The notes beneath the pieces were generated by a model that was not told the origin of the DNA, did no database searches, and was given only the letters and a program-made list of their open reading frames with translations. DNA of 64,000 bases. Source: Candidatus Magasanikbacteria bacterium RIFCSPHIGHO2_01_FULL_41_23 (lineage in GTDB: Bacteria; Patescibacteriota; Patescibacteriia; Magasanikbacterales; UBA922). The stretch lies in NCBI GenBank assembly GCA_001782805.1, contig MFPT01000003.1:44072-108071 (forward strand). Direction: 5' to 3'. Made by a program: the position numbers and the translations under genes. Below are positions 54,268-57,154 of this stretch, piece after piece. Within the stretch, counting starts at the first letter, position 1. Each line of letters starts with the position of its first letter.

Positions 54268-55946
54268 GGCCAAGCACTTAAATTCCCTACAAATTAGCTT
54301 GCTTTAAGTCCAGAAAAGGATGTAGTCCCGACAAAAGTCGGGATGTCGCCTCCGGCTCCAGATACTGAGGTAAAAAGAGTAACCTCCGCGGTTCTCTTTT
54401 TCATTATTAAGGGTTTGAGTTTGTCCATTACAATTTACACAACAATTGCAATCTGCAACAAATTGCAATTACGATAAGGTTCACATTATAAATGTGACAA
54501 GAAACAATAATCGTCTATCCAAAATCAAGATCAACTCCTTTCTGATTTATCAGAGAGGGTTACTCCAATAATCCTTCGGGATTTATTTGAGAGTTTGATC
54601 CTGGCTCAGGACGAATGTTGGCGGCGTGTATAAGGCATGCAAGTCGAGGGATCGATCGTAGCAATACGATACGGACCGGCAGACGGGAGAGTAACACATT
54701 GGTAACCTACCTCTAAGACGGGGATAGCCTTCCGAAAGGAAGATTAATACCCGATAGTAACGCGGGGACACAAGTCATTCGCGTTTAAAGATTTTTCGCT
54801 TAGAGCAGGGCCTATGGTCTATCAGCTAGTTGGTGAGGTAATGGCTCACCAAGGCGACGACGGATAGGGGACGTGAGAGCGTGATCCCCCTCACTGGGAC
54901 TGAGAACTGCCCAGACACCTACGGGTGGCTGCAGTCAGGAATCTTCCGCAATGGACGAAAGTCTGACGGAGCGACGCCGCGTGCAGGATGAAGCCCTTTG
55001 GGGTGTAAACTGCTTTTATAGGGGACGAATTTGTGACGGTACCCTATGAATAAGAGGTTGCTAACTCTGTGCCAGCAGCAGCGGTAATACAGAGACCTCA
55101 AACATTGTCCGGATTCATTGGGCGTAAAGCGTCCGCAGGTTGCCATATAAGTTAGGGGTTAAATCTTCCGACCTAATCGGAAAACCGCTTCTAATACTGT
55201 ATGGCTCGAGGTTGGGAGAGGCATATGGAACTGCCGGTGTAGTAGTAAAATGCGTTGATATCGGCAGGAACACCAAAGGCGAAGGCAATATGCTGGAACA
55301 ACTCTGACACTCAGGGACGAAAGCGTGGGGAGCGAAAGGGATTAGATACCCCTGTAGTCCACGCCCTAAACTATGTGTGCTAGGTATTGGGAGTATCGAC
55401 CCTCTCAGTGCCGTTTAAAAAAGCTAACGCGTTAAGCACACCGCCTGGGGAGTACGGCCGCAAGGCTAAAACTCAAAGGAATAGACGGGGACCCGCACAA
55501 GTGGAGGATCATGCGGTTTAATTCGATGGTACGCGACGAACCTTACCGGGGCTCAACTACTAGCTGCAAGCCTGATGAAAGTCGGGCCGCTTTTGAAGGT
55601 GCTAGATAGGTGCTGCATGGTTGCCGTCAGCTCGTGCCGTGAGGTGTACCCTTAAGTGGGGTAACGAGCGCAACCCTCGTTCTGTGTTAAATTTACACAG
55701 AGGACTGCCTGCGCAAGCAGGAGGAAGGTGAGGACGACGTCAAATCAGCATGGCTCTTACGTCCCGGGCTACACGCATGATACAATGGTTAGTACAGAGG
55801 GAAGCTAAGCCGCAAGGTGGAGCTAATCCCAGAAAGCTAATCTCAGTTCGGATTGTGGGCTGCAACTCGCCCACATGAAGCTGGATTCACTAGTAAACGC
55901 GCATCAGCCACGGCGCGTTGAATACGTTCTCGGGTCTTGTACTCAC

Positions 55947-56811
55947 AATAAAAGCGCTGGGCAGTTTAATAATCTAGAGAGTTAAAATCTCTCCCTCTAC
56001 AACGTCTGTAGAGCGTAGCCGAAAGATAGTCGTCTTCCGCGAGGGAGGCGGTGAAGGATCTGAAGGCAAATCACAGTCCAATCATAAAAAAACCGTATTG
56101 ACCTTTGAATCGGCGGTGAGCAAAGGGAAAATACACTTACACAGGTTTGATTGGAATGCGAGGAATAGAATATTAAATAACCCCAGGAGATCTTATGCCG
56201 TTTTGATTATTATGATAGTATAATCAAATAATGTAACTTACACGGCATAAGAAGTCAGCTGAATCGTAGTAGTGTCGACTAGTCGACATGAAGGATTCTC
56301 TCGAATCATATGGAAAAAATAAATCCAAATTATATCGTTGGTCTAACGGACGGGGAAGGAAGTTTTACAGCTTATGTAAAAAATCCGGATATGTCCAAAG
56401 AGGTCAAGCGAAGAACAAAAGTTGAGCCAAGGTTTTATATCAAACTCATTGAGAAAGATAAAAAAATTCTCTATGAATTGAAAAAATTCTTTGGCTGTGG
56501 CAATGTTTATTTTCAAAAAGATAAACGAGCCAATCATCAAGATTGTTATCGCTATGAAGTCGCCAATAGAAATGATTTGCAGAAAATAATTATTCCATTT
56601 TTCAAAAGTAACTCTTTGAGATTACGCTCAAAGAGCCGTGACTTTGAATTTTTTTGCCGGATTATGGAGATGGTCATGAGAAATGACCACCTGAAAGACA
56701 TAGGCCTCAGGAAAATCTTTAATCTCAAGCAAAAAATGCATTAGAGCTCGTCGTGTGCGGGAAATCCGCAGGCACGATGGGAACATCAATTCTAAGTTTC
56801 TAGAATATAAT
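55947..56811 (+). other. Intron inside the 16S gene (probably group I), encoding a LAGLIDADG homing endonuclease. Boundaries are approximate.
   Basis: The universally conserved 1390-1400 region is interrupted. The contained ORF has a LAGLIDADG motif. Confidence 0.6.
56310..56744 (+). CDS. LAGLIDADG-family homing endonuclease (intron-encoded)
   Basis: 'YIVGLTDGEGSF' is the LAGLIDADG motif. The gene is 144 aa and lies within the 16S intron. Confidence 0.8.
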   Translation: MEKINPNYIVGLTDGEGSFTAYVKNPDMSKEVKRRTKVEPRFYIKLIEKDKKILYELKKFFGCGNVYFQKDKRANHQDCYRYEVANRNDLQKIIIPFFKSNSLRLRSKSRDFEFFCRIMEMVMRNDHLKDIGLRKIFNLKQKMH

Positions 56812-57154
56812 CGCCCGTCACACCACGAAAGTTGGCAATGCCCAAAGGCTCCCGCAAGGGGGACGAAGGCAGGGTCAATGATCAGGGTGAAGTCGTAACA
56901 AGGCATCCCTAGCGGAAGCTGGGGATGGATCACCTCCTTTCTGGAGTTAATTCCGAGGAATCGGAATAATTTCAACTACAGATGATTATCTTCTTGTCAC
57001 ATTTATAGAGTGAACTTATCGCAAAAAAAATCCCTCGTTGGAAAAACCAAGGGATTTTTTTATTTACAAAAATAAAAATTTAAAAAATTTGACAAACACA
57101 AACGGGGGGGGGGTATTATTACTGGGAATTTAATTCAGTAATAATTAATTTTAT

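Follow-up and report, generated by a model that had tools for sequence, protein, structure and literature searches.

A group II-like intron with a LAGLIDADG homing endonuclease gene between C1399 and C1400 of the 16S rRNA gene in a Magasanikbacteria genome

Introduction

What kind of element interrupts a bacterial 16S rRNA gene in its decoding centre, where exactly does it begin and end, and how could it be removed? The question is raised by a stretch of DNA of 64,000 nucleotides (nt), here called the window, from Candidatus Magasanikbacteria bacterium RIFCSPHIGHO2_01_FULL_41_23 (assembly GCA_001782805.1, contig MFPT01000003.1, positions 44,072 to 108,071), which belongs to the Candidate Phyla Radiation (CPR). 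An earlier note on the window, made by eye, had described a 16S gene carrying an intron with an open reading frame (ORF) of the LAGLIDADG type and had left the intron class undecided. We find that the insert is very probably a mobile intron of the group II type, in which a small ribozyme resembling IIC is combined with a single-motif LAGLIDADG homing endonuclease encoded in domain IV, without a reverse transcriptase.

Group II-like inserts with LAGLIDADG_1 genes near position 1400 of CPR 16S genes were published in 2024 (Tsurumaki et al., J Bacteriol, PMC11270868), and CPR rRNA inserts were found to be absent from transcripts (PMC11270868). A 2026 survey describes a LAGLIDADG group II intron termed rns-1396 (S1396) in Thiomargarita, other large sulfur bacteria and a few CPR (Liu, 2026, PMC13190283). 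Coordinates below are window positions on the forward strand unless stated otherwise.

Results

The insert lies between C1399 and C1400

Using cmscan with the Rfam bacterial small subunit (SSU) model RF00177, the 5' exon of the 16S gene was found at 54583-55946 (1304 bits; E. coli about 1-1399), ending in ...CUUGUACUCAC. The SSU match resumes at 56810-56927 (82 bits, E=2.2e-23, model positions 1389-1520), and the sequence itself extends the 3' exon over 56812-56941 (E. coli about 1400-1542), from CGCCCGUCACACC to the anti-Shine-Dalgarno end CACCUCCUU. The whole gene, intron included, covers 54583-56941 (2.36 kb). The 1392-1406 stretch of the 16S decoding centre is universally conserved; in the window this block is divided into GTACTCAC (to 55946) and CGCCCGTC (from 56812), with 865 nt between them. 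We place the insertion point between E. coli C1399 and C1400, a numbering based on the primer block 1392-1406 and on the established positions C1400, G1401, C1402, and A1408. The earlier note had read a 16S gene here with exons colinear with bacterial 16S, a conserved block split between 55946 and 56812, and, near position 1400, an intron with a length of about 865 nt. The model matches on both sides of the insert agree with the first two points, the split holds to the base, and the insert (55947-56811) measures exactly 865 nt and follows C1399. The covariance model, which the note had proposed as a check, matches on either side of the insert, and the insert is not a native expansion of the 16S.

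The intron starts with AAUAAAAGCGC and ends with ...AUAAU. Where the window has ...CTTGTACTCAC up to 55946 and CGCCCGTCACACC from 56812 onward, intron-less 16S genes of related CPR bacteria read ...CTTGTACTCAC/CGCCCGTCAC... (the slash marks the junction) with zero nt in between, and the empty site in close relatives is TGTACTCAC/CGCCCGTCA. Because intron-less relatives carry nothing between the exons, the boundaries 55947 and 56811 are exact, and they cannot slide, since the intron begins with A and ends with U whereas both flanking exon bases are C. A scan of metagenome contigs for the predicted empty site TGTACTCACCGCCCGTCA gave at least 120 matching contigs, which have CPR-like 16S flanks. 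Empty and intron-bearing loci were found to be 95-99.5% identical over 208-430 nt in the pairs L104-L055, L086-L036, L122-L048, and L145-L054, while between the empty locus L121 and the window the identity is 88.6% in the flanks and 85% when the full gene is compared in its spliced form. Such near-identical flanks of occupied and empty genes show that the insert is an all-or-none element with exact ends. No target-site duplication was found on comparison of occupied with empty sites. A splice site after 1396, as in Thiomargarita, was considered and rejected, because the 3' flank lacks CAC while intron-less alleles contain it.

To define the family, one genome per GTDB species was scanned; 272 genomes encode a relative of the intron protein, and the best 80 of these 272 loci were fetched. 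The relatives are labelled almost all as CPR (Parcubacteria, Moranbacteria, and other CPR metagenome-assembled genomes), in line with the view of the earlier note that protein-encoding introns in 16S genes are a hallmark of these bacteria. In all 75 complete loci the intron sits at the identical site, TTGTACTCAC/AAUAAA-N-GCGC ... AUAAU/CGCCCGTCA. Since rRNA regions assemble poorly in metagenomes and many of the related loci lie at contig ends, it may be asked whether the locus is an artefact of assembly or binning in which a mobile element and a 16S fragment were fused into a chimeric contig. We consider this hardly conceivable. Loci that different studies assembled independently of each other, 75 in all, share this element and its junctions, and in the window the intron has 54 kb and 7 kb of sequence on its two sides. 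In addition, the entire gene with its intron is enclosed by an inverted repeat of 25 nt (92% complementary), formed by a leader arm at 54479-54503 and a trailer arm at 56991-57015 of the pre-16S processing stem.

Some CPR-type intron contigs were found in genomes that are not labelled as CPR: L001, L023, and L051 are labelled Gammaproteobacteria, L020 Brevinema andersonii, and L071 Nanoarchaeia. These contigs are mostly short, or the intron is at a contig end, and mis-binned 16S fragments are a likely explanation of the labels rather than a true occurrence outside CPR. The closest intron copy to that of the window is L001; that both come from the same genome was rejected, as the similarity ends at the end of the 16S gene.

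The conserved block of the window differs from the quoted consensus at a single position, with U for A at E. coli 1396 (window 55943), and U1396 was present in all related CPR 16S genes fetched (L001-L160), whether intron-bearing or intron-less. This U pairs with an A of the proposed guide GUGAG discussed below, and every intron-bearing allele has it, which could suggest that it was brought in by co-conversion with the intron. We rejected this explanation because at least 120 intron-less contigs carry TGTACTCACCGCCCGTCA, some with flanks 95-99.5% identical to those of intron-bearing relatives. U1396 is native to these CPR lineages. U1396 (in GTACTCAC) mismatches the classic 1392R-type universal primer sequence GYACACACCGCCCGT, which gives, beside the gene length, a second reason why such organisms escape surveys by polymerase chain reaction (PCR).

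The gene is the only 16S gene of the window, and a scan with rRNA models found no 23S or 5S gene in the 64 kb, so that it is unlinked from other rRNA genes. As an ordinary stand-alone copy it is presumably essential, and the insert would then have to be removed for the decoding centre to form.

The insert has the domain order of a group II intron

Scanning the insert with group I and group II models, as the earlier note had advised, returned group II intron families only. RF01998 (group-II-D1D4-1) matched 56213-56296 with 32 bits (E=9.5e-4), where the gathering score is 35, and RF02001 matched 56033-56177 with E=0.13. At the same place 6 of 12 relatives gave RF01998 matches of 31-36 bits, one of them above the gathering score. 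The structure derived below has a multi-branched domain I followed by domains II and III, a domain IV holding the ORF, and domains V and VI, with helices backed by covariation. About 360 nt of domains I-III precede the ORF and the 67 nt after its stop codon form the hairpins of domains V and VI; without the 435 nt of the ORF, the ribozyme measures 430 of the 865 nt. The intron's 3' end, AU, fits the AY of group II introns.

These data also bear on a group I intron with a LAGLIDADG endonuclease, a reading that draws on LAGLIDADG genes being typical of group I introns and on group I-like inserts making up more than half of the CPR rRNA inserts (PMC11270868). However, RF00028 gave no match in the window (E<=10) or in 12 relatives (E<=0.05). 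Group I chemistry requires a U at the end of the 5' exon and an omega-G at the end of the intron; in the window these two positions hold C and U, which this chemistry does not allow. Both the multi-branched 5' domain and the bulged hairpin of 35 nt directly after the ORF are covarying structures that speak against group I, and the scaffold has a homologue that specialists assign to group II. A group I intron is therefore very improbable, and the class is settled as group II-like.

The intron begins with a 5' linker, AAUAA (55947-55951), followed by AAGCG (55952-55956). We regard AAGCG as the counterpart of the group II motif GUGYG; of this motif only the GCG is conserved, in invariant columns of the family alignment, and the motif (xxGCG) starts 5 nt into the intron. 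Domain I (55957-56186) was defined from RNAalifold covariation on 47 sequences and mapped to window coordinates. It is closed by helices pairing 55957-55961 with 56182-56186 and 55964-55975 with 56167-56178, and contains hairpins at 55977-55993 and 55995-56013 and branches at 56018-56067, capped by a GCGA loop, and 56071-56161. The exon-binding hairpin lies at 56102-56126, with a stem of 56102-56107 and 56121-56126 and a loop of 56108-56120. Domain II (56187-56256) has a conserved stem (helix 10, 99% paired) and a variable distal hairpin, and is overlapped by the RF01998 match. The same match, together with covariation, supports the junction J2/3 (AGC...) and domain III at 56257-56298; the basal helix of domain III pairs GAAUC (56261-56265) with GAUUC (56294-56298), followed by an internal loop, GUAGUA opposite GAAG, and a distal hairpin at 56272-56289. 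Domain IV (56300-56746) closes around the ORF by a stem of 3 base pairs (bp), CUC (56300-56302) with GAG (56744-56746).

Domain V (56747-56781, 35 nt) was found by covariation and has a stable single-sequence fold (z=-4.3). It consists of a lower helix of 10 bp, a 2-nt bulge on the 3' strand (A56770 and G56771), an upper helix of 4 bp, and a GAAAU loop. Group II introns have in this place a hairpin of about 34 nt and 14 bp, with 2 nt bulged on the 3' strand and a G.U wobble of the triad five pairs below the bulge, and the hairpin of the window agrees with this geometry. By its spacing from the bulge, which we take from a comparison with the domain V of ai5-gamma, the triad would be C56749-G56750-U56751, with G56750 paired with U56778 and U56751 with A56777. 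Of 51 sequences, 37 have CGC as the triad and 14, among them the window, have CGU with the partner G changed to A; the central G.U pair is invariant. The AGC of GAGCUCG was rejected as the triad, as its GAG is the domain IV stem partner of CUC, with compensated changes in L030 and L046, and it lies 4 bp too far from the bulge. Domain VI (56785-56808) has compensatory changes in all of its 8 pairs. Its basal helix of 3 bp pairs 56785-56787 with 56806-56808 (C56787.U56806 is mismatched in the window) and its distal helix of 5 bp pairs 56790-56794 with 56801-56805, with an AA bulge on the 5' strand (56788-56789); the 3' tail AAU (56809-56811) follows. A register of domain VI with A56807 bulged was rejected from the covariation of pairs 44-68, 45-67, and 46-66.

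Compensatory changes were found throughout this structure. For domains V and VI (51 aligned 3' parts) 97.8% of the cells were paired compared to 30-48% in slid controls, the covariation score was 0.553 compared to 0.05-0.11, and 14 of 22 pairs showed double changes; for domain V alone 99.6% of the cells were paired and 6 pairs compensated. The 47 aligned 5' parts gave double changes in 57 of 73 pairs of domains I and II, with 95.1% of the cells paired compared to 35-42% in controls. The domain III basal helix exists in at least 12 different compensated versions of its 5 bp in the relatives, and the conserved domain IV stem in the compensated variants UUU/GAA (L030) and UUC or UCC/GGA (L046). 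From the compensatory changes across the helices we conclude that the fold of the RNA, with its group II order of domains, is conserved and under selection.

An unexpected observation at the catalytic core was that L031 (about 2965-3030), L056 (about 955-1010), and L061 (about 1668-1720) carry a structured insertion of 50-60 nt inside domain V. On the 3' strand, it separates the U opposite the triad G from the GGG that closes the base of the helix. Perhaps these copies have lost their activity, or perhaps the 3 bp at the helix base can accommodate a three-way junction.

Several observations weigh against the reading as a group II-type intron. The domain V-VI model RF00029 had no match, even at E<=10, in either the window or a 96-nt slice, and the RF01998 score of the window is 3 bits under the gathering score. 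The 5' splice site lacks GUGYG, the intron starting with AAUAA-AAGCG instead, and in the register supported by covariation there is no bulged branch adenosine on the 3' strand of domain VI. Both of these departures are on record for LAGLIDADG-encoding group II introns. In the window copy the triad assigned above is CGU and neither AGC nor CGC, the loop of domain V is a pentaloop and not a GNRA loop, and the basal helix of domain VI holds the C.U mismatch. The two proposed exon-pairing elements described below are invariant in the family, and their pairing is read from complementarity and a one-family comparison, not from covariation.

The non-canonical 5' end, the missing branch adenosine, the CGU triad, and the lack of a match to RF00029 could also mean that the insert derives from a group II intron but no longer splices by itself, and that it is removed by proteins of the host or the intron, or excised by RNases with no joining of the exons, which would leave a fragmented 16S rRNA. 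Fragmenting intervening sequences processed by RNase III are known in bacterial 23S genes (PMC11270868). Domains V and VI and all other helices are, however, kept by compensatory change across very divergent hosts, which implies selection on the fold; a break in the universally conserved 1392-1406 stretch of the decoding centre would probably be harmful, and related introns without a branchpoint splice by hydrolysis. We thus consider loss of self-splicing unlikely, although splicing may depend on a protein cofactor. The reading as a group II-type intron is retained.

As to the subclass, we lean towards IIC from the small size, the 3-bp base of domain VI, and the CGC triad, which in most family members resembles the triad of O.i.I1. 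The type of ORF, LAGLIDADG_1 instead of a class C reverse transcriptase, and the 16S target, instead of a site past a terminator stem-loop, are a misfit with canonical IIC introns. The canonical IIC introns O.i.I1 and B.h.I1 share the small ribozyme, apparently the lack of a second exon-binding site (EBS2), the 3-bp base of domain VI, and a tendency to hydrolysis in vitro (PMC4748821), but differ from the window intron by their reverse transcriptase, their insertion sites past terminator stems, and their GUGYG start. The subclass of the homologous rns-1396 family is itself disputed, being given as IIB1 (Zimmerly and Semper, 2015, PMC4424553) and as IIC (Liu, 2026, PMC13190283).

Exon pairing and a proposed splicing pathway

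The last 5 nt of the 5' exon, CUCAC (55942-55946), are the proposed intron-binding site 1 (IBS1), and GUGAG (56116-56120) in the loop of the exon-binding hairpin is the proposed exon-binding site 1 (EBS1). The two would form a perfect 5-bp match, and GGUGAG is invariant in the family. Directly upstream lies GGCG (56112-56115). The 3' exon begins with its complement, CGCC, so that the complementarity extends to 9 nt across the junction CUCAC/CGCC. The tetranucleotide upstream of GUGAG is GGCG (35) or GGUG (35) in 70 of 74 introns. Both can pair with CGCC, so the C/U wobble keeps the proposed pairing with the 3' exon in these 70 introns.

The following pathway may be proposed. The gene would be transcribed as one precursor bracketed by the leader-trailer stem, and the intron would fold into domains I-VI. 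The domain I loop GGCGGUGAG would then pair with CUCAC (EBS1-IBS1), and probably also with CGCC of the 3' exon, by which both splice sites would be held at the active site of domain V. The first step is most likely hydrolysis and not branching, since GCG lies 5 nt inside the intron and domain VI lacks a bulged adenosine, and a linear intron would be released. Ligation of the exons would restore GUACUCAC-CGCCCGUC of the decoding centre. At the DNA level the endonuclease, presumably as a homodimer, would cut intron-less alleles at TGTACTCAC/CGCCCGTCA, and repair from an intron-bearing copy would spread the element by homing. Natural group II introns that lack a branchpoint are known to be excised only as linear molecules; they have no reverse transcriptases, and some have acquired homing endonucleases (PMC4748821).

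The predicted intron-encoded endonuclease

The LAGLIDADG_1 homing endonuclease gene lies at 56310-56744 (stop included) and encodes 144 amino acids, as the ORF list, Pfam, and the homologues agree. The earlier note had read this ORF as intact and had named a frameshift as what would refute it; it is open without a frameshift in the window sequence. The Pfam domain LAGLIDADG_1 covers residues 9-118 (E=4.9e-18). The ORF contains YIVGLTDGEGSF and a single LAGLIDADG motif, GLTDGEGSF, in which D14 and E16 are invariant, and every residue that is invariant in the family is present. A total of 1072 protein homologues was found; the best are 90-91% identical and come from Parcubacteria, Moranbacteria, and other CPR genomes. 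The gene is under purifying selection, with a ratio of nonsynonymous to synonymous substitution rates (dN/dS) of about 0.1 against 17 relatives with unsaturated dS.

The nearest solved structures in the PDB are of the fungal mitochondrial I-SmaMI, I-LtrI, and I-OnuI type (E about 1e-27), and the window protein aligns to each half of these two-domain enzymes. That its PDB relatives are fungal agrees with Liu (2026, PMC13190283), where the bacterial protein is placed within the fungal lineage. The predicted target is the intron-less 16S sequence GAATACGTTCTCGGGTCTTGTACTCACCGCCCGTCACACCACG. A pseudo-palindrome, as expected for the target of a homodimeric enzyme, was looked for in this DNA, and the best alignment matched at 6 of 11 positions, which is uninformative.

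In L036, L038, L045, L048, and L070, which are Staskawiczbacteria-like, the only in-frame AUG was found upstream (MRRNLSN...). Read from this AUG, the frame shares sequence with the 3' strand of domain III and with the stem of domain IV.

Comparison with known introns

A homologous intron of the 1396 family was reportedly described by Salman et al. in 2012. For the rns-1396 reference FR690945 from Thiomargarita nelsonii, only the first approximately 400 nt are given in the seed table of Liu (2026). The 5' 366 nt of the window intron were found to be 58.6% identical to it, compared to a mean of 43% and a maximum of 52% for shuffled sequences. Shared blocks are the linker with xxGCG, the GGAAUG...GAAAUAG and AAUGACCC regions, and GAAGUCAGC-GA-UCGUAGUA; the two introns are thus homologous. 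According to Liu (2026, PMC13190283), rns-1396 has the 5' exon ...CUUGUACA, the 3' exon CACCGC..., and an EBS1 ...GUGUAC..., and a 5' terminal linker occurs in all of its members. The intron of the window resembles it in the single-motif LAGLIDADG ORF in domain IV, the 5' linker, the target in the 16S decoding centre, and apparently the lack of EBS2, although no systematic search for a second exon-complementary loop was made in the window intron.

The two differ in site and guide. The rns-1396 site follows A1396 (GUACA/CACCGC), 3 nt upstream of the window site after C1399 (GUACUCAC/CGCCCG), and the rns-1396 loop is GUGUAC where that of the window is GGCGGUGAG, so the window has neither the site nor the EBS1 of that family. 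Within the exon-binding loop, UGUGUAC in Thiomargarita stands against AAUCGGCGGUGAG in the window, and the full Thiomargarita loop, GUGUGUAC, is complementary to its own site, GUACA/CAC. As each loop matches its own exon site, the two families appear to have one scaffold with different guide loops, and the difference is indirect covariation evidence for the exon pairing. The N-terminal protein sequences also differ, MREISPENISGFVVGEGCF in rns-1396 compared to MEKINPNYIVGLTDGEGSF in the window. The 1399 junction occurs in 0 of 63 entries of the table of Liu (2026, PMC13190283).

Inserts of the CPR class "16IS9" (position 1400; Tsurumaki et al., 2024, PMC11270868) share with the window the CPR host, the site near 1400, a weak Rfam group II similarity, an insert length of at least 100 nt, and a single-domain LAGLIDADG_1 ORF without a reverse transcriptase. 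In that paper the inserts are placed only approximately relative to E. coli, and splice junctions, a domain structure, and exon-binding sites are not given. The 1396 and the 1399 lineages may be pooled in its site 1400.

Among group I rRNA introns with single-domain LAGLIDADG proteins, such as those encoding I-CreI and the CPR enzyme I-ShaI, the protein superfamily and the logic of homing at the DNA level are the same, while the ribozyme belongs to another class and I-ShaI comes from a 23S insert. The I-ShaI endonuclease of that CPR 23S group I insert is an active homodimer, and is the only endonuclease of a CPR rRNA insert tested biochemically.

LAGLIDADG introns of group IIB1 in fungi were reportedly also treated by Toor and Zimmerly in 2002, Mullineux et al. 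in 2010, and Li et al. in 2011. Those in fungal mitochondrial rRNA genes resemble the window intron in having an rRNA host gene and no reverse transcriptase, in splicing upstream of GUGYG, and in having lost the branch site and, as it seems, EBS2 (PMC4424553); the fungal introns carry insertions at the 5' terminus, and their distance between splice site and GUGYG is 1-33 nt (PMC4424553). They are organellar, with a larger ribozyme and mostly double-motif monomeric enzymes, whereas the window has a bacterial host, a ribozyme of approximately 430 nt, and a single-motif protein.

Neighbouring features

A hairpin followed by a T-run was seen by eye at 57030-57062, just past the trailer arm; the terminator scan missed this hairpin. 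Upstream of the next ORF, which starts at about 57147, the sequence at 57089-57119 is promoter-like, with TTGACA, a spacer that includes a homopolymer tract of ten G (57104-57113), and TATTAT. On the reverse strand, a TTG-initiated ORF of 115 amino acids (56628-56975) runs antisense to the end of the endonuclease gene, the remaining intron, and the 3' exon, and is almost certainly spurious. The RNase P RNA of the window (29670-30196, reverse strand) is of class A (142.7 bits) and measures 527 nt compared to 367 nt for the model. Two large insertions, each of about 85-90 nt, are located in a distal helix and close to the 3' end, respectively.

Discussion

The kind of element found here is already published, by Tsurumaki (2024) for the CPR site near 1400 and, as regards the homologous family at 1396, by Salman (2012) and Liu (2026); the window adds one more member. 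What is new from the present analysis are the exact junctions, the domain map, and the contrast between the 1396 and 1399 sites. The chances appear to us evenly balanced that the 1399 introns (S1399) form a large CPR-wide lineage, maybe undescribed at splice-site resolution, and that this lineage is a retargeted sister of the Thiomargarita S1396 intron, moved by 3 nt through the rewriting of one domain I loop into a 9-nt guide (for CUCAC/CGCC) fitted to U1396. If all 272 species genomes carry the intron, no other bacterial family of LAGLIDADG group II introns would be as widespread, and yet none of the 63 bacterial entries of the 2026 survey has its junction.

For the study of CPR bacteria, 16S genes of 2.36 kb escape PCR surveys and are often truncated or mis-binned, and the exact junctions permit clean splicing in silico. 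In this family, a minimal group II ribozyme in which retromobility would have been exchanged for homing at the DNA level is available in dozens of naturally occurring variants. Its members have lost the branch adenosine and shifted the 5' splice site, and the 1396 and 1399 introns may be regarded as a natural retargeting experiment on one exon-binding loop.

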